A stretch of 64,000 nt of DNA, taken from assembly GCA_965197645.1 (NCBI GenBank), contig OZ240219.1, positions 864,001 to 928,000 of the forward strand, in the 5' to 3' direction. The DNA is from Dehalococcoidia bacterium (lineage in GTDB: Bacteria > Chloroflexota > Dehalococcoidia > Plut-88900). The stretch's first letter is position 1. Every line of letters begins with the position of its first letter. Of the stretch, positions 37,579 through 44,206 are shown piece by piece. The notes beneath the pieces were generated by a model that saw nothing but the letters and a program-made list of their open reading frames with translations, had not been told where the DNA came from and made no database searches. The translations under genes were made by a program, and so were the position numbers.

Positions 37579-37648
37579 ACAGCCTTCCCACCGGTTGACG
37601 GTCCACAACGCCGGTCCCTTTGCCCACATCCTAGAGCAGACATCCTTT

Positions 37649-39595
37649 ATGAAGCTCTCCCGTATCCATCTGGTTCTCCCTTCGCTGGCAGTTTTGGTCT
37701 TGGCTCTGGCCTGCGGCTCCGGTGCACCGGGGGTCGTCTCAACCCCTACCATCGAACCCGCTGAAGACTCGGTGGAGGGCGCAATCGAGGTATCCTTTCC
37801 CGACATTCCCACCCCACCCGACCTCGACCTGTATGCCCTCGCCGAAGCCTTTGGGCTGAGCCCGGATGGGGCCATCCCCCGCCTGACCGCCATCGATCCC
37901 CATGACGAGGCGATAGGCGTCCAGCGGACGTTCTGGATCGTCGACCTGGACGAGCGGGAACCCCTCCAGGTCTCTGCAACCCTGCGATACATCAGCCCCC
38001 ACCTCTACATGTACGTCGAAGATGGACGAGGGGTATCGGAGGAGGACCTCGCCGAGGCTGCCCAGGAGTTCGAGGAGGTGATCTACCCCGCTATGGCTGC
38101 TCGATTTGGCGGTCTGCCGGACGCCGGAGACGACGGCGCCGGACGCCTTACGGTGCTCCACGCTCGCATTCCCGCCGTGGCGGGCTACTACAATCCGGCC
38201 GATGAGTATCCCTCCTTGATAAACCGCTACAGCAACGAACGGCGAATGATGTACATCAACCTGGACGCCGCCTGGCCCGGGACGGCCTACTACTCCTCGG
38301 TGCTGACCCACGAGCTTCAGCATGCTATCCACGCCGCGGCCGATCCCACAGAGGAGGGATGGATCAACGAAGGACTGTCGACCCTCTCGGAGGAGATCGT
38401 TGACCCGCAAGTGACATGGTATCTGTACTACAGAGACGAGCCGGACACCCAGCTTACCGGCTGGGGGGTCGACCCGGGCACTTCCGGCAAACACTACGGC
38501 GCAGCCTATCTGTTCATGAAGTACTTCAGCCAGCACTATGGCGGCCCGGAAGCGGACGGTGGGATCAGCGCCCTGGTCTCCCATCAGGCCGACGGCATCG
38601 AAGGAATCAACGCCTACCTCTCCGAAAGCGGATACGAAACCGACTTCGAAAAGGTGTTCAAGGACTGGGTCGTGGCCAACTACCTGGACAAAGCGGAGGG
38701 CGGTATCCACAGCTACGAGGACCTGGATTTCCGGCTGCCCACGACCAGGAGGGCAACCGACTACGGGCGCATCTCGGGGGCGGTGCCCCAGTATGCCGCT
38801 CACTATGTGGCCGTGAGCCTGAAACAAGGCAGCGCCCGCATAGTGTTCCACGGCACTCCACAAACGAGACTCCTGCATAACCAGGCTCACAGCGGCAGCT
38901 GGCAGTGGTGGAGCAACCAGGGCGATGCCATCAACTCCACCCTCACCCGTGAGGTGGACCTGCTCGGCCACAGCGAGGCCAGCCTGGATTTCTGGGCCTG
39001 GTACGATATCGAAGATGACTTCGATTTCGCCTACGTGGTGGCCTCAACCGACGGGGGCCGCACCTGGGATATCCTTCGGGGAGACCACTCCACCGACGAT
39101 ACTCTCTTGGGCAATAGCTTCGGACCTTCCTACTCGGGCGTCAGCGGGGACGGAGAGAACCCCCAGTGGGTGTTCGAGAGCATAGACCTGTCCCCCTACG
39201 CCGGTCGAAAGGTCCTGGTCCGGTTCCAGTACGTCACAGACGGAGCCGTCAACATTCGCGGCCTGGCCATCGACGACATCTCCATCTCCGCCGTCGGATT
39301 CGAGGATGATGTCGAACATGGGGACGACGGGTGGATTGCGGAAGGGTTCGTCCGCATCCCGGACCTGGTGCCCCAAAGCTTCTCCGTTCAGGCCATCCAC
39401 TTTGGCGATACGGTCTCAGTTAGCGAGGTCCCCCTTTCGGCCGGGCAACGGGGCGAGCTGACGGTCCACGGCTTCGGCAGCGAGATCGATGAGGTGGTGC
39501 TGGTGATAGCGGGGACCACTCCCTTCACCAACGAGCTCGCCTCCTACTACGTTTCGGTCCTGCCCGTCTTAGATCCGGGTAGTGCCTCGTTTTGA
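37649..39595 (+). CDS. Lipoprotein zinc metallopeptidase (immune inhibitor A/M6- or M30-like)
   Basis: Lipobox LALAC, HELQH plus WINEGLS, and C-terminal WYDIE..FD.AYV and DLSPYAG...RFQYVTD. Confidence 0.8.
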   Translation: MKLSRIHLVLPSLAVLVLALACGSGAPGVVSTPTIEPAEDSVEGAIEVSFPDIPTPPDLDLYALAEAFGLSPDGAIPRLTAIDPHDEAIGVQRTFWIVDLDEREPLQVSATLRYISPHLYMYVEDGRGVSEEDLAEAAQEFEEVIYPAMAARFGGLPDAGDDGAGRLTVLHARIPAVAGYYNPADEYPSLINRYSNERRMMYINLDAAWPGTAYYSSVLTHELQHAIHAAADPTEEGWINEGLSTLSEEIVDPQVTWYLYYRDEPDTQLTGWGVDPGTSGKHYGAAYLFMKYFSQHYGGPEADGGISALVSHQADGIEGINAYLSESGYETDFEKVFKDWVVANYLDKAEGGIHSYEDLDFRLPTTRRATDYGRISGAVPQYAAHYVAVSLKQGSARIVFHGTPQTRLLHNQAHSGSWQWWSNQGDAINSTLTREVDLLGHSEASLDFWAWYDIEDDFDFAYVVASTDGGRTWDILRGDHSTDDTLLGNSFGPSYSGVSGDGENPQWVFESIDLSPYAGRKVLVRFQYVTDGAVNIRGLAIDDISISAVGFEDDVEHGDDGWIAEGFVRIPDLVPQSFSVQAIHFGDTVSVSEVPLSAGQRGELTVHGFGSEIDEVVLVIAGTTPFTNELASYYVSVLPVLDPGSASF

Positions 39596-39692
39596 ATTGC
39601 TCACGCCTCGCTCCGCTAGCTATAGGGTGTTGACAAACTATAACGGCCCACTTACGATTGACACGTGCATTAGCTGGGGTGAGGAAGGACAC

Positions 39693-39890
39693 ATGACCAC
39701 CATTGAACAACGAGTTGGTCAGCTAGAGGGTGCTTATCAACACCTTGCAACCAAGGAAGACGTGGCAGGGTTGAAATCTGAACTGAAAGGCGACCTGCTC
39801 AATGTTGTCATCAAGTTGGCTGGTTTACAGCTTCTCGGTATAGGCGCAGTCGCCGCCATAATGCACTTCCTGGGAGGAGGGGGGTCATAA
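39693..39890 (+). CDS. Small coiled-coil plus TM protein (DUF1640/CCDC90-like)
   Basis: LATKED motif followed by a hydrophobic C-terminus. Confidence 0.65.
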   Translation: MTTIEQRVGQLEGAYQHLATKEDVAGLKSELKGDLLNVVIKLAGLQLLGIGAVAAIMHFLGGGGS

Positions 39891-39892
39891 TC

Positions 39893-40138
39893 ATGCGAGG
39901 ACCTAACGGAGAAAAGAGACCTAGGGACCCCATCGCCCGTGCTGTCATGGTAGCAAAGATAGCTACTGGCGAGATTGAAGAACAGCTGCCATCTAAGCGG
40001 CGCAACGGCGGCCTGAAAGGCGGCCCTGCCCGTGCTAAGGCCCTCAGCCCAGAGCGGCGCAGGGAGATAGCAAAAAAGGCTGGTTTGTCGCAAAAGAAAA
40101 ACTTGACTGCGGAGGAGAAGGGCGGAATCGAACCGTAA
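39893..40138 (+). CDS. Small basic protein commonly associated with IS1/IS1595-type elements
   Basis: KRPRDP...IATGE...GGLKGGPARAKALSPERRREIAKKA. Confidence 0.75.
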   Translation: MRGPNGEKRPRDPIARAVMVAKIATGEIEEQLPSKRRNGGLKGGPARAKALSPERRREIAKKAGLSQKKNLTAEEKGGIEP

Positions 40139-40204
40139 TGCTAGGTTGAGCTAGCGATTCGGGGGGTCTCATCCCCCGTCCCGTCCAACGGGCAACCCTC
40201 TCTC
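40110..40204 (-). tRNA. Non-canonical tRNA-like gene (allo-tRNA-like; anticodon GAG)
   Basis: Minus strand folds into an acceptor stem GAGA(G)AGGG/CCCTTCTC, D-stem CCCGT/ACGGG, 6-bp anticodon stem around the loop ATGAGAC, a long variable arm and a 3-bp T-stem with loop TTCGATT. Confidence 0.6.
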
Positions 40205-40296
40205 AAGGCCCTGGCTTAGTCCAGGGCCTTCCCTATTCTATCAACCCCCTATACGGTATTGACAAGCTGAGAAGCCTGAACGTAAGGTGTACGCGA

Positions 40297-40409
40297 CTTG
40301 ACGGTCATTCGTGTCGTAATCCGGCTGGGCATTCGAGGCAAGGTAAGCCAGAGGGATTTCGCCCTTTCATGCCCCCTCTGGCCCTGCCGGGTTGCGGATG
40401 ACCGTCAAG
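40297..40409 (+). ncRNA. Predicted long structured RNA or leader
   Basis: Nested stems CTTGACGGTCAT/ATGACCGTCAAG, CGTAATCCGGC/GCCGGGTTGCG and GCCAGAGGG/CCCTCTGGC, just downstream of TTGACA-18-TAAGGT. Confidence 0.45.
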
Positions 40410-40474
40410 CACCGAAATCCTGATGGCTCGGAGGGGGCACCAGCTTGTCCCCTTCGCACAAAGGGGGCACGTGC

Positions 40475-40858
40475 ATGGCGCTCACAGATAATCGGCAAGT
40501 TGCCCGAATAGGTTTCCGTATCGTAGGCCCGCTGATGATGATAGTCACGGCGGGTTTTTTGGTTTTCGGCGGCGTCATCCTGGGGTTTGCCTTGGACAAA
40601 GAAGCACCGCATTTCACCACCAGGCTCTTCGAGAAATATCCCTGGTGCTTCGACGGATACCCCGATCAGATATTCAGCCCTCGCGACTGCCTGGCTCGAT
40701 TCATACAGGCGGAGGCGCATCGCGGGGCGGACTACTGGGACCAACGGCGTCTCCAAGACGAGGCCGACCTACTGGCAATGGATGAAGAGGAACGGGCCGC
40801 CGTTCTTGAAGCCAGGTGGAGCGCCTACCGTCTGTGGAAAGACACGGACGGCCTGTAG
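40475..40858 (+). CDS. Hypothetical membrane-anchored protein (IS cargo)
   Basis: N-terminal TM helix; GGGG RBS. Confidence 0.5.
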   Translation: MALTDNRQVARIGFRIVGPLMMIVTAGFLVFGGVILGFALDKEAPHFTTRLFEKYPWCFDGYPDQIFSPRDCLARFIQAEAHRGADYWDQRRLQDEADLLAMDEEERAAVLEARWSAYRLWKDTDGL

Positions 40859-40876
40859 CTAGGTGAAGGAGAAAGT

Positions 40877-41080
40877 ATGGCTAATGAAGTAGGGTACTGC
40901 CAGCACGTCGGCGGATGGACAAACAAGGGATGCCAGAACGAGGCCCTATCCGGTGACACCTTCTGTCATGCACACCAGGTACAGCGTGACCAAGACGCTG
41001 AAAATCGCAAGTGGATGAAACGGCTAGGCCTAGGCATTGTCGTGCTCGCTGTTCTCATCACTGCCATTGTCTACATATAG
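40877..41080 (+). CDS. Small Cys/His zinc-finger-like plus TM protein (IS cargo)
   Basis: C-x10-C-x9-C-x2-H and a C-terminal hydrophobic helix; AAGGAG RBS. Confidence 0.6.
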   Translation: MANEVGYCQHVGGWTNKGCQNEALSGDTFCHAHQVQRDQDAENRKWMKRLGLGIVVLAVLITAIVYI

Positions 41081-41138
41081 GCTGTAGGCCCTACAGTAAG
41101 GCCAGCCAGCAATAGGGCAACAAGAAACGGAGGACACC

Positions 41139-41390
41139 ATGGACGGAGACATACAGGCTTTTCCAGTGTCGGAGGTCGAGCACGTAAACGGGATGATGAC
41201 TCTTGTAGCAAAACACCCCGGCATGACCCTGCGGGACTACTTTGCAGGGCAGGCCCTAAGTGGTCTACTTGTATGGCATGAAAGAGACTGGCCGACAGCG
41301 GTAAGGGCAGCGTACCAGGCCGCCGATTTCATGTTGGAAGTGAGAACAGCTAATGAAGGTACCGGAGAACCTGCAAGAGAGCAAGCCTAA
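41139..41390 (+). CDS. Phage-type small conserved protein (IS cargo)
   Basis: AFP...GMTLRDYFAGQAL...AYQAADFML motif, common in phage hypothetical proteins. Confidence 0.7.
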   Translation: MDGDIQAFPVSEVEHVNGMMTLVAKHPGMTLRDYFAGQALSGLLVWHERDWPTAVRAAYQAADFMLEVRTANEGTGEPAREQA

Positions 41391-41574
41391 ACTCAGGCGA
41401 CTCAGGCCCATCACCGTCCAGGATATTGACCTGCCCTTTGCTGCTGTCTTGGCCCTGGTGTTCAAGTGGAGTGTAGCTGCTGTGATAGTCGGGGCGGGTT
41501 GGGCTGTAGTGGGTGTTCTGCTCTGGTATCTGGTCTGGAATATGCTGTCACCGGAGACGGCTCCGCGGTTCTAG
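41353..41574 (+). CDS. Small membrane protein (IS cargo)
   Basis: VQDIDLPF...KW.VA followed by a TM helix. Confidence 0.5.
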   Translation: MKVPENLQESKPKLRRLRPITVQDIDLPFAAVLALVFKWSVAAVIVGAGWAVVGVLLWYLVWNMLSPETAPRF

Positions 41575-41759
41575 GGTAGGTTCCGGGAGGTATTGACACC
41601 CTGCCAGCTTGTCAGGCCTGCCCTGCGGAATATGGCCCGGTTTTTACGTTCCTGGCGGCGGCGCTCAGCTTGTTCCTCTCGCAGTTCCTTCTCATGTCGC
41701 TCAGGGTCAATGCCCAGGGCAAGAAGGGTTTGCCGGTCTCGTGGAGTATCATTAGGCAT
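41571..41759 (-). CDS. Small charged hypothetical protein (IS cargo)
   Basis: GGAGG RBS; 62 aa, Arg/Glu-rich helix. Confidence 0.45.
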   Translation of the reverse strand: MPNDTPRDRQTLLALGIDPERHEKELREEQAERRRQERKNRAIFRRAGLTSWQGVNTSRNLP

Positions 41760-42017
41760 AAGGCCTCCTAGCCAGTGGCCTTGACAAGCGGCGGCTAGGG
41801 CCTTAACATGGAGTCAACGTTGGGTTAACGTTGTTTGTCAAGTCCGCTGGACTCTCAAGAAATCCCTTTGCCGAGGGGTTTCTTGCTATCTATTCAGTTC
41901 CCTCTATCATATCACGCCTGGCCGCCAACTGCTCACAGCCATTGAAATAACTATAAACTCTTGACATTTACGCCTGGACCCTGTATTATTTAGCTAGTAT
42001 TAAGACAGGGGCAGGCA

Positions 42018-42914
42018 ATGAATAAACTACCCGAAAACCTACGAATACAGGCCCTCAACATGCTGGTGGAAGGCTCGTCCATGCGCTCCATCAGCCGAGT
42101 GCTGGGCATTACGCTCAACTCCGTTACGAAGCTGCTGGTGGATGCTGGAGAAGCGTGTGTTGCTCACCACGACGCAACGGTCCGGGAAGTCACGGCCCGG
42201 CATGTTCAGTGTGATGAAATCTGGTCGTTCTGCTACGCCAAGGCGAAAAAGGCTCCCCACGCTCAGGGCATCATCGACAGGGCTGGGGATGTCTGGACCT
42301 GGACGGGCATAGACAGCGACACCAAGTTGATTATCTCTTGGCTGGCTACACCTGGTCGTGACTCCGCCTTTGCCCTGGAGTTCATGGATGACTTAAGGGC
42401 CAGGTTAGCTAACAGGGTACAGCTCTCCACAGATGGTCACAGGGCCTACTTGGAGGCTGTAGAAGGGGCGTTTGGGGGAGACGTGGACTACGCCCAGCTT
42501 ATCAAGCTCTACGGGCCGTCTGAGGAAGAGCAGTCGGGTGGACAACGGCGGTACTCTCCCGCTCACTGCGTGGGGATTCGCAAGGTGGATGTGGTTGGCA
42601 GGCCCAACATGGATGAGCTTAGCACGTCCTACGTGGAGCGTCACAACCTTACAATGCGAATGGCTATGCGTAGGTACACCCGGCTCACTAATGCCTTTTC
42701 TAAGAAGCTAGAGAACCACATGCACGAACTGGCTCTGTACTTTACCTGGTACAACTGGATCAGGCCTCACAAGAGCCTGCTAGGGAAGACCCCGGCACAG
42801 AAGGCGGGGCTGGCTGACAGGGCCTACGATATACGGTGGATAGTCCAGATGATGGACGCCAGGGTACCGAAGCAGAAGCGGGGACCGTACAAGCCAAGGG
42901 TCACGGTGGCCTAG
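42018..42914 (+). CDS. IS1-family DDE transposase
   Basis: N-terminal HTH (LVEGSSMRSISR), QCDEIWSF, STDG, TSYVERHNLTMR..RRYTRLTNAFSKK and YNWIRPH motifs. Confidence 0.93.
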   Translation: MNKLPENLRIQALNMLVEGSSMRSISRVLGITLNSVTKLLVDAGEACVAHHDATVREVTARHVQCDEIWSFCYAKAKKAPHAQGIIDRAGDVWTWTGIDSDTKLIISWLATPGRDSAFALEFMDDLRARLANRVQLSTDGHRAYLEAVEGAFGGDVDYAQLIKLYGPSEEEQSGGQRRYSPAHCVGIRKVDVVGRPNMDELSTSYVERHNLTMRMAMRRYTRLTNAFSKKLENHMHELALYFTWYNWIRPHKSLLGKTPAQKAGLADRAYDIRWIVQMMDARVPKQKRGPYKPRVTVA

Positions 42915-43121
42915 AAGCGCTTCGCGGCGAACGTCACGAGCAGTTTTAACACCAGGTGGCGGCGCTCTCGCTCACTCTCGGCCAGATAGTCCAAACGCCG
43001 TGTGGCTGTCATCAGTAATTTCCTACCTCTCTTGCCTTGTTTAGCACGGTCTATAGCTTGTCAAGGGCATCTTATCTGGTTTATTATTCGTCTCACGTTA
43101 CACTAGTAGCGGAGGGGCGAA

Positions 43122-43601
43122 ATGACAACCAAGAAAGAAACCGCACCTAGTCGCGACCTCACTTTCGAGTGGGGACGGACCGCTTCGGCAGACCTGGCCA
43201 AAATCGGTGATACCATTGACTCTCGGGCGATAGGTATCTTCGCAACGGGCAGTCTCATCATCGGCGTTTCAGCTACAGTTGTTGAGACTATCTTGGACTG
43301 GTCGAGCCTAGCATTACTGTTCGTTGTGGCTGGTTATCTGGCAACAGCGGTGTTCGGTTTGCTCATAGTGTTTCCACATCCTGCACCAGGCCCGGACAAC
43401 CCCACGACACTTAGGAAACGGTACTGGCCTATGCCACCTGCAGAAGCCCAAGAGGAGTACTGGCAGTGGGTGGAAGATGAGTACGAGCAATGGTACCCCA
43501 AAGTGAACAAGAAGGGGCGTTATCTCAGGTACGCTATCGGCGGGCTAGGTGTAGAGGTTTCAGCACTTATTGTCTGGGTTATCCTCGTTACTGGCTTCTG
43601 A
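43122..43601 (+). CDS. Three-TM membrane protein (IS cargo)
   Basis: IDSRAIGIF, two TMs, a soluble loop, then NKKGRYLRYA and a C-terminal TM. Confidence 0.6.
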   Translation: MTTKKETAPSRDLTFEWGRTASADLAKIGDTIDSRAIGIFATGSLIIGVSATVVETILDWSSLALLFVVAGYLATAVFGLLIVFPHPAPGPDNPTTLRKRYWPMPPAEAQEEYWQWVEDEYEQWYPKVNKKGRYLRYAIGGLGVEVSALIVWVILVTGF

Positions 43602-43842
43602 CGAGTCCTTTTCTCTGGGCGAACCTTTCTCTGACCCCATGCTCAAGCGGATGATGTCAGCGTCGGCCATAGGCTTCATTCGCAAAACGGAGTCTTTAGG
43701 ATTGCCGCCAGTGCCTTCATCCTGTGAGTCCCCGCCGTTGCCGTCTTTTTCTTTCTCAGTCATGTTTGTATCCTCCAAGGCACTCATTGTCGGAAATTGA
43801 TTGGTCAGTGTCAATACCCTATACGAAAGAAAGGAAGACACC

Positions 43843-44076
43843 ATGGAAGGTCACACCCACATCATCCAACTAAGCGCCCCTAACATCGAAGTGAAAGCCA
43901 AGGAACTCTATCCGGCAGGAGACAGCAGCACGCCGAACAAGTTCGTGGTTCAGTGTCCCGATTGTGGTACTGAGGTTCTCGAATTCAAAGGGCAGGTCAA
44001 AGAAGTGTTCCATATCCCTGGCAGTGGGCTAGACAAGATACGCAAGGGGCTGGAGGAACAAAAGCCTAATCCCTAA
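43843..44076 (+). CDS. Small protein with a CPDCG knuckle (IS cargo)
   Basis: HTH...CPDCG potential metal site; AGGA RBS. Confidence 0.45.
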   Translation: MEGHTHIIQLSAPNIEVKAKELYPAGDSSTPNKFVVQCPDCGTEVLEFKGQVKEVFHIPGSGLDKIRKGLEEQKPNP

Positions 44077-44206
44077 CCCCCTCTCCCTCTCTCCCAAATT
44101 CACCAATTTCAAACTGAGGCACTACCTAGATCCGTGACCCATTTTGAGGCTAACAGCACGGATGCTATAATCGAGATTCGTCGTATCATCCTCATCCGGA
44201 GAGACC

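Follow-up and report, generated by a model that had tools for sequence, protein, structure and literature searches.

Transfer RNAs (tRNAs) whose body and anticodon disagree are known in nature most clearly from the allo-tRNAs, engineered versions of which are widely used for genetic-code expansion. Allo-tRNAs of the (8/4) and (9/3) forms surfaced as false positives of a search for selenocysteine tRNA (tRNA-Sec), usually have G73 or U73, and associate with transposon-related genes (Mukai et al. 2017, PMC5389517). An (8/4) allo-tRNA-GAG inserted serine at CUC in E. coli (PMC5389517). The hosts named in that paper are Clostridia, Proteobacteria and Acidobacteria, the same groups being named by Krahn et al. 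2020 (PMC7609411), and among the taxa that it names Chloroflexi appear only for an 8/4 tRNA-Sec (PMC5389517). Here we describe an allo-tRNA-type gene with the anticodon GAG (the GAG gene) in a window of 64,000 nucleotides from a Dehalococcoidia bacterium of the phylum Chloroflexota, by which we mean the whole stretch analysed, i.e. positions 864,001 to 928,000 of contig OZ240219.1 in assembly GCA_965197645.1. The gene lies inside a 4,549-bp transposon resembling the insertion sequence (IS) family IS1, at 39578-44126 of the window.

By its published description, the (8/4) allo-tRNA-GAG of Silvibacterium bohemicum can be likened to the GAG gene: both have a tRNA-Sec-like shape, an 8/4 branch of 12 layers, a long variable arm and a 6-bp anticodon stem, and both combine a serine-type body with GAG, a discriminator that is G or U and a location near mobile genes; unlike that case, the GAG gene comes from Chloroflexota, and two of its 12 layers are A x C oppositions (PMC5389517). 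The D arms may differ as well, the published allo-tRNA having a tetraloop on a 6-bp stem and the GAG gene a loop of 3-5 nt (PMC5389517). The phage (8/4) tRNA-Ser(GGA) has the same pattern of T arm and acceptor and can be aligned with the GAG gene over the full length (PMC5389517), whereas the phage copies have a serine anticodon and belong to clusters with as many as 27 tRNA genes, and the anticodon of the GAG gene is a leucine one, with no other tRNA gene beside it in the transposon. In Edaphobacter strain C40, an allo-tRNA-UAU pseudogene likewise shows stem-weakening changes and overlap with a mobile-element gene; it is described as having 'several base-pair disruptions', whereas the GAG gene keeps all helices and its whole element is defined (PMC5389517, PMC7609411). 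As to the carrier, the transporter ISs of the IS1/IS1595 group (Siguier, Gagnevin & Chandler 2009, cited in PMC3129680) likewise have inverted repeats, an 8-bp duplication and unrelated passenger genes, one difference from the transporter ISs described there being that one passenger here is a tRNA-type gene.

Judging from the sequence, we hold with moderate confidence that the GAG gene is a mobile (8/4) allo-tRNA gene with a serine-type acceptor, carried as a passenger of an IS1-like transporter element, and that its product would accept serine and act as a missense tRNA, probably a weak one, at CUC and CUU codons. This reading is built on the fold of the RNA, its family, the ends of the element, the duplicated target and a site found empty in a relative, all of which are observed.

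The sole tRNA that ARAGORN calls in the window is a tRNA-Leu(gag) at 40114-40202 on the minus strand. No Rfam model matches the window at its gathering threshold; the best member of the tRNA clan by E-value is bacterial tRNA-Sec (RF01852), which aligns to 40113-40204 with 25.8 bits (cut-off 47, E 0.0079). The GAG gene has the same general architecture as tRNA-Sec, including the 8/4 form of Chloroflexi (PMC5389517), but it was rejected as a tRNA-Sec by this score and by its anticodon, which is GAG and not UCA. A family covariance model built from homologs (R2, see below) gives it 75.5 bits (E 6e-14 per genome), and by this score the predicted cloverleaf is more than chance. The folding energy is less telling (z -1.59, with 14 of 200 shuffles equally good), so that the cloverleaf is supported by homology and covariation, and not by folding energy.

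The predicted mature RNA runs from 40203 to 40113, where U40113 is the discriminator (U73) and is followed by CCG, CCA not being encoded. Its anticodon arm consists of a 6-bp stem and a 7-nt loop with U33, GAG and A37, its variable arm of a 5-bp stem and a 6-nt loop, and its T arm of a canonical T loop on three Watson-Crick pairs; the D arm has four Watson-Crick pairs plus a possible U-A pair and a G x A opposition. A preliminary description of this DNA, made from its letters alone, had drawn the same anticodon stem, U33 and A37, variable arm and T loop on three pairs, without CCA, and had called the whole an allo-tRNA-like cloverleaf; the features that it listed are all found in the letters. 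The 7/4 drawing given by ARAGORN, with an unpaired variable region, was dropped for the fold supported by covariation. The stretch is single-copy in the genome, a single contig of 3.21 Mb. The possibility that it is the remnant of an attachment site was rejected, there being no integrase and the gene being internal to the element. A 17-nt sequence within a 159-aa membrane open reading frame (ORF) of the same element (43307-43323, plus strand) repeats, on the opposite strand and with one mismatch, positions 40129-40145, i.e. the junction of the variable and T arms; the flanks do not extend the repeat, and with a roughly estimated chance expectation of ~0.002-0.007 for such a match to the tRNA in the region, it is possibly a chance match.

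Homologs were sought with R1, a covariance model made from the GAG gene alone, with a 25-letter pattern over the shared T arm and the pyrimidine-rich 3' acceptor strand, and with R2, for which 151 + 12 genomes were scanned. R1 detected homologs in two other genomes of the same bacterial family, namely G004 (38.5 bits) and G011 (34.3 bits), while BLAST of the GAG gene against 61 related genomes gave no full-length match. In 185,579 species genomes the pattern matched five loci, all labelled Dehalococcoidia or Chloroflexota and including those of G004 and G011, and it also matched one viral contig and eight metagenome contigs. At E <= 0.01, R1 gave 13 matches with nine distinct sequences, which form our alignment A2; two metagenome loci with the pattern and no model match (L044 and L048) were left out, and a match of 27.5 bits in G099 was rejected as it lacks a T arm. 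The homologs thus come from five other Chloroflexota genomes and from phage tRNA clusters. The Chloroflexota copies have the anticodons GAG (L043), CUA (L040), UAA (L039) and CAA (G011), the anticodon arm of the G004 copy being degenerate. The six phage-type matches (22.5-25 bits with R1), all with the anticodon GGA and within tRNA clusters, are the published phage (8/4) tRNA-Ser.

Over the nine distinct sequences, 91.5% of the cells of the 8/4 cloverleaf are paired, compared with 43-53% when the 3' partners are slid, and 17 of the 27 pairs change on both sides; none of 500 shuffles reaches any of these measures. Homologs with compensatory changes, the absence of which would have told against the preliminary description, therefore exist. 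The nearest relative, L043, is 63.8% identical to the GAG gene and has the same anticodon and variable-loop sequence, its anticodon and variable stems being different but compensated; at least six pairs differ on both sides between the two, and none is broken. The GAG gene keeps all 26 invariant columns, and its one departure from the otherwise invariant columns leads to a G.U pair, the other members having 0-2 departures.

The body of the RNA is of serine type. Positions 2-7 of its 5' acceptor strand are identical to those in three of the four tRNA-Ser genes of the host, and R2 scores host tRNA-Ser genes at ~34 bits and lists no host tRNA-Leu at E <= 0.001. The five long-armed tRNA-Leu genes of the host have stems of the GCCGA/GCGGA type, A73 and CCA, none of which is present in the GAG gene; a canonical bacterial tRNA-Leu, marked by a 7/5 branch, A73 and the acceptor stem of host tRNA-Leu, was rejected accordingly. 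Elsewhere in the genome the host encodes a tRNA-Leu(GAG) and a tRNA-Sec of its own. By its U73, serine-type acceptor and leucine anticodon, as read from the gene, the GAG gene shows the mismatch of body and anticodon that defines allo-tRNAs, and in this, as in its tRNA-Sec-like form, long variable arm and 6-bp anticodon stem, it is of the type that had been proposed.

The element around the gene comprises the following features (window coordinates).

39570-39577, no strand: left target-site duplication of 8 bp, the same 8 bases as at 44127-44134.
39578-39601, plus strand: left terminal inverted repeat, starting GGTAGTG; its first 11 bases are the reverse complement of the right end.
39630-39658, plus strand: sigma-70-like promoter match for the plus-strand genes of the left end (TTGACA-17-TACGAT, 10/12), a consensus match only.
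39693-39890, plus strand: 65-aa ORF with a hydrophobic tail, from the ORF list; no Pfam or PHROG match.
39893-40138, plus strand: 81-aa conserved small IS-family protein, with tblastx matches in eight of nine related elements.
40113-40204, minus strand: (8/4) allo-tRNA-type gene, anticodon GAG, predicted from ARAGORN, Rfam tRNA-Sec, R2 and covariation.
40205-40230, minus strand: 10-bp hairpin abutting the tRNA 5' end, a putative leader hairpin or insulator (-28.2 kcal/mol in a 60-nt context, z -3.95, 0 of 200 shuffles as good).
40235-40243, minus strand: extended -10-like box TGnTAGAAT, a putative tRNA promoter read from the sequence.
40445-41759, both strands: variable cargo, with ORFs of 137, 67, 83 and 73 aa (plus) and 62 aa (minus), one of them phage-like.
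42018-42914, plus strand: DDE transposase of 298 aa, distantly IS1-like (NCBIfam IS1, 53.7 bits; Pfam DDE_Tnp_IS1 and rve_3 weak).
43122-44076, plus strand: right-hand cargo, a 159-aa membrane ORF (43122-43601) and a 91-aa ORF (43801-44076), from the ORF list; no confident family.
44103-44126, minus strand: right terminal inverted repeat, matching the left end.
44127-44134, no strand: right target-site duplication of 8 bp, the same 8 bases as at 39570-39577.

The two ends are identical over their first 11 bases and match at 18 of the first 21, and the target duplication is perfect. IS1 ends read GGnnnTG. The transposase scores below the cut-offs of the IS1 models (NF033558, 53.7 bits against 100; Pfam DDE_Tnp_IS1, 22.1 against 24.1), so that its membership of the IS1 family is loose, and a search for literature on the ISMhu11 subgroup found nothing. 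The target was the stop codon of an InhA-like/MAM-domain peptidase gene (37595-39595), to which the insertion added a six-residue tail from the inverted repeat of the element; the right copy of the duplication together with TGA (44127-44138) restores the ancestral end of the gene. In a relative, G002, the site is empty, the peptidase gene, a SLOG-domain gene and the enolase gene being adjacent, without the island or the tRNA. The GC content (fraction of guanine plus cytosine) is 0.50-0.58 inside the element (~39.5-44.2 kb) and 0.61-0.66 outside, and the element is single-copy in the genome. The inverted ends, the 8-bp duplication and the empty site support the view that the tRNA gene is carried by a mobile element, as had been supposed. 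Among the cargo, the 83-aa ORF (41139-41390) matches phrog_2201 (1.6e-12). Toxin-antitoxin domains, searched for with Pfam and PHROGs in the island and beside four homologs, were not found.

Homologs of the transposase occur in 47 of the 401 genomes of the class, and the same end sequence flanks them in 10 of 20 loci, defining elements of 2.3-6.4 kb; of these ten, eight are flanked by exact 8-bp duplications and one by a duplication shifted by a single base, and the tenth lacks any. These elements have in common the transposase and, near the left end, the 81-aa protein, with a spacer between the two that varies. In the window the spacer holds the tRNA gene and small phage-like ORFs, and nothing within 40103-41966 is shared with the related elements. 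The relatives of the 81-aa protein end in a conserved ...KAAxARW tail, whereas here the homology stops near 40081-40102, just before the 3' end of the tRNA, and another sequence stands in place of the tail; by this, the tRNA cassette appears to have entered the IS later. Scanned with R2, one of 29 transposase loci at +/- 1.5 kb has a Ser-like tRNA with the anticodon UAU, and at +/- 6 kb two of 20 loci have a match, namely the same UAU locus and an ordinary tRNA-Ser 6 kb off. The former, at L126 4162-4249 (G338:C21), is long-armed and lies 270 nt downstream of its transposase homolog. Contigs of the same community, from three DNA runs of one study, hold a ~87%-identical variant of the GAG tRNA, and in one contig (1,343 nt, depth 2) a tRNA variant lies ~490 nt from a homolog of the 5' part of the transposase, compared with 1,970 nt here, so that at least one more element pairs the tRNA with the transposase. 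Joints in community contigs that skip ~2,291 bases were not used; their sides are short and 85% alike, and they are probably related elements with other spacers. By tblastn, no neighbour genes common to the allo-tRNA loci were found, and a literature search on suppressor tRNAs as passengers of insertion sequences found nothing related.

Upstream of the tRNA the preliminary description had noted the 10-bp hairpin and a TAGAAT -10 sequence, and both hold: the hairpin exceeds all shuffles, and TAGAAT is found at 40235-40240, preceded by TGn, with the box 4 to ~7 nt upstream of the hairpin. The box goes uncalled by the promoter scan because its spacing to the -35 is 19 nt. Similarly strong hairpins precede two of six other Chloroflexota copies folded. 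The hairpin is not a genome-wide repeat, only two sites in the genome having its 8-bp arms. Aligned with MAFFT, the upstream 134 nt of seven copies show no global similarity (36% column identity), and a similar box plus hairpin is shared, as judged by eye, only by the G011 copy. Downstream, the tRNA gene and the 81-aa gene converge, so that the last 26 bases of the latter overlap the tRNA and the 3' trailer of the tRNA runs antisense into it. In a search for duplexes with the anticodon arm within +/- 600 nt, no partner on either strand stood out from mononucleotide shuffles, of which 27-153 in 200 did equally well. As to other copies, the UAA homolog of a Dehalococcoidia metagenome-assembled genome (L039 3781-3954) is followed on its own strand, after 16 nt, by an ordinary tRNA-Ala(UGC) and is preceded by a 16-bp hairpin with a U-run (z -5.95); by these neighbours and this hairpin, it may belong to a normal tRNA transcription unit.

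The GAG gene is one of three extra tRNA genes in this genome that have leucine anticodons (GAG, UAA and UAG) and non-leucine bodies. The second (G000:C1:2853074-2853165, plus strand, the same as L077 8075-8164) is of allo-tRNA type with the anticodon UAA and was missed by ARAGORN; it scores 50.8 bits with Rfam tRNA-Sec, above the cut-off of 47, and is best read as 9/3, with an acceptor stem of nine pairs, all perfect, and a T stem made up of two G-C pairs and an A x C. Upstream of it, at 207 nt, is an IS1595-family transposase (NCBIfam 200.5 bits), and its position -1 is the last base of a hairpin with arms of 16 nt. The third (G000:C1:1714431-1714502, minus strand, the same as L147 3932-4003) is a 72-nt class-I tRNA with the anticodon UAG, which scores 48.2 bits on the Rfam tRNA model; it bears the alanine marks G3.U70 and A73, and its gene does not encode CCA. 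Among 12 genomes of the bacterial family only the host has it, between a housekeeping glycine-tRNA ligase gene and a HARE-HTH ORF. In G004, the homolog of the GAG gene (L036 8420-8514, G004:C5) lies in a 3.8-kb insertion (L036 5106-8905) that has 33-nt inverted repeats (91% complementary) and splits a DNA methyltransferase gene; an IS1595-family transposase (170.3 bits) points away from the homolog at a distance of 169 nt, and the homolog goes uncalled by ARAGORN. In this bacterial family odd tRNAs thus stand beside transposases three times, two of the copies beside IS1595 transposases. Of the 15 new loci found class-wide by R2, 14 were set aside as ordinary tRNA-Sec (6) or tRNA-Ser (8). An 8/4 tRNA-like gene with the anticodon GCA and discriminator U was seen at L131 1501-1595 (G128:C28). 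A 95-nt 'tRNA-Thr(ggt)' called by ARAGORN at 492888-492982 (minus strand) did not reappear when the excised piece was scanned, had no Rfam match at E <= 0.01, and is probably a false call.

In the reading that we favour, the 4,549-bp element jumped whole into the peptidase gene, at its stop codon. Minus-strand transcription from the extended -10 box would give a transcript with a hairpin leader, which RNase P and a 3' nuclease may trim; CCA would be added by a host nucleotidyltransferase (PF01743), genes for which are encoded in the host genome, and seryl-tRNA synthetase, which would ignore the anticodon, could charge the tRNA with serine. The charged tRNA would then compete with the host tRNA-Leu(GAG) at CUC and CUU codons; it would probably decode weakly, owing to its two A x C mismatches, one at 1:72 and the other where the acceptor and T stems join. 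A mismatch at 1:72 weakens EF-Tu binding, as in the initiator tRNA, and weak activity is expected on this ground. In 1,753 long ORFs of the host, CUC (23.4) and CUU (9.5) together amount to 32.9 per 1000 codons, a frequency at which a fully active copy would be costly; weak decoding, if such is the case, would make for a low-level trait of Leu-to-Ser mistranslation that is not lethal.

Several observations weigh against a functional gene of this kind. In the 8/4 frame, 10 of the 12 layers of the acceptor branch are standard pairs and two are A x C, namely 1:72 (A40203 x C40114) and 49:65 (A40136 x C40122), and relative to the nearest homologs the D loop lacks a base. CCA is encoded in 47 of the 50 host tRNAs called by ARAGORN and not in the GAG gene, although six of the eight members examined of its own family do not encode it either. 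On the minus strand upstream of the gene the promoter scan found no sigma-70 site, and neither scan nor folding found a terminator after it. The invariance of the T arm and part of the pairing are built into the comparison, since A2 was fitted to the model structure and five of its sequences were fetched by a pattern that fixes the T arm. An odd tRNA was found at only one of 20 transposase loci (+/- 6 kb), so that the tRNA is not a regular part of the IS family. Finally, the only other copy in which both pairs are broken, that of G004, is ruined in its anticodon arm as well, and this points to a path of decay.

This last point is the best argument for the main rival, namely that the GAG gene is a recently inactivated allo-tRNA pseudogene hitch-hiking as IS cargo, in which the mismatches, U73 and the short D loop stop processing, charging or EF-Tu binding; we regard this as unlikely, though to be taken seriously. 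Both pairs are standard in seven of the nine distinct sequences, with G-C in most homologs; the G004 copy is likewise in a transposon and has escaped ARAGORN; the 81-aa gene of the IS overlaps the GAG gene by its 3' end; and a pseudogene overlapping a transposon-related ORF, as well as inactive UAU species, are known among allo-tRNAs (PMC5389517). Against this rival, its remaining helices are intact (6-bp anticodon stem, 5-bp variable stem and 4-bp D stem), the pairs changed relative to L043 are unbroken, its single departure from otherwise invariant columns yields a G.U pair, and the two mismatches are of the mildest kind, A x C at the end of a helix. The preliminary description had been right that the acceptor branch is imperfect; what has changed is the register, the homologs showing an 8/4 design of which the 1:72 pair and the fourth T-stem pair are lost, as A x C, in the GAG gene, and its suggestion of a degenerate gene is not borne out by conservation, all invariant columns being kept and the one departure falling within the range of the other members. 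The 9/3 register itself, in which a G.U at the third acceptor pair could give alanine identity, is very improbable as the true fold. A purine run on the 5' strand and a pyrimidine run on the 3' strand would permit slippage, the frame has five Watson-Crick and two G.U pairs, the minimum-energy fold draws nine pairs with one bulge, and the UAA allo-tRNA of the same host is best read so; yet two A x C mismatches fall inside the stem in this frame, the closest homologs are cleanly 8/4, and across the nine distinct sequences only 67.9% of acceptor cells are paired in 9/3, compared with 91.7% in 8/4. By these sequence comparisons the GAG gene belongs to the known (8/4) allo-tRNA class, and not to the 9/3.

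A different explanation, which we think decidedly improbable, is that the RNA does not decode at all and serves the element as a tRNA-like RNA, either in antisense control of transposition through the 81-aa gene, or as a decoy or spare against host or phage nucleases that attack tRNA-Leu. The antisense trailer and the 26-base overlap of the convergent genes fit such a role, as do the repeated adjacency of odd tRNAs and transposases in the bacterial family and the three extra tRNAs with leucine anticodons on non-leucine bodies in one genome. The anticodon arm, on the other hand, has no partner in its surroundings that stands out from shuffles, and the proper 7-nt loop with U33 and a purine at 37, kept across differing anticodons, fits decoding better. 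A serine-accepting, probably weak missense tRNA carried by an IS remains the account that we prefer.

In terms of class, the GAG gene can be regarded as a further allo-tRNA of a known kind, coming from Chloroflexota, a phylum not among the allo-tRNA hosts named in PMC5389517 and PMC7609411, the supplementary lists of which might hold further taxa; it extends the allo-tRNA class to this phylum. By lying between the inverted ends of a transposon with a target duplication and an empty site, it provides a concrete link between allo-tRNA genes and a route from genome to genome, and the element is a defined 4.5-kb unit for studying transposition, tRNA expression and Leu-to-Ser misreading. As a much bolder conjecture, and a doubtful one, transporter ISs of the IS1/IS1595 group in Dehalococcoidia might spread tRNAs with leucine anticodons and non-leucine bodies as a selfish 'codon-ambiguity' cargo, the expression of which may be restrained by the leader hairpins and by the convergent overlap with the IS regulator gene, and which might bring about conditional Leu-to-Ser/Ala mistranslation or protection against nucleases that cleave tRNA-Leu. 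For the host, activity of the tRNA would mean that 3.3% of all its codons are exposed to it.

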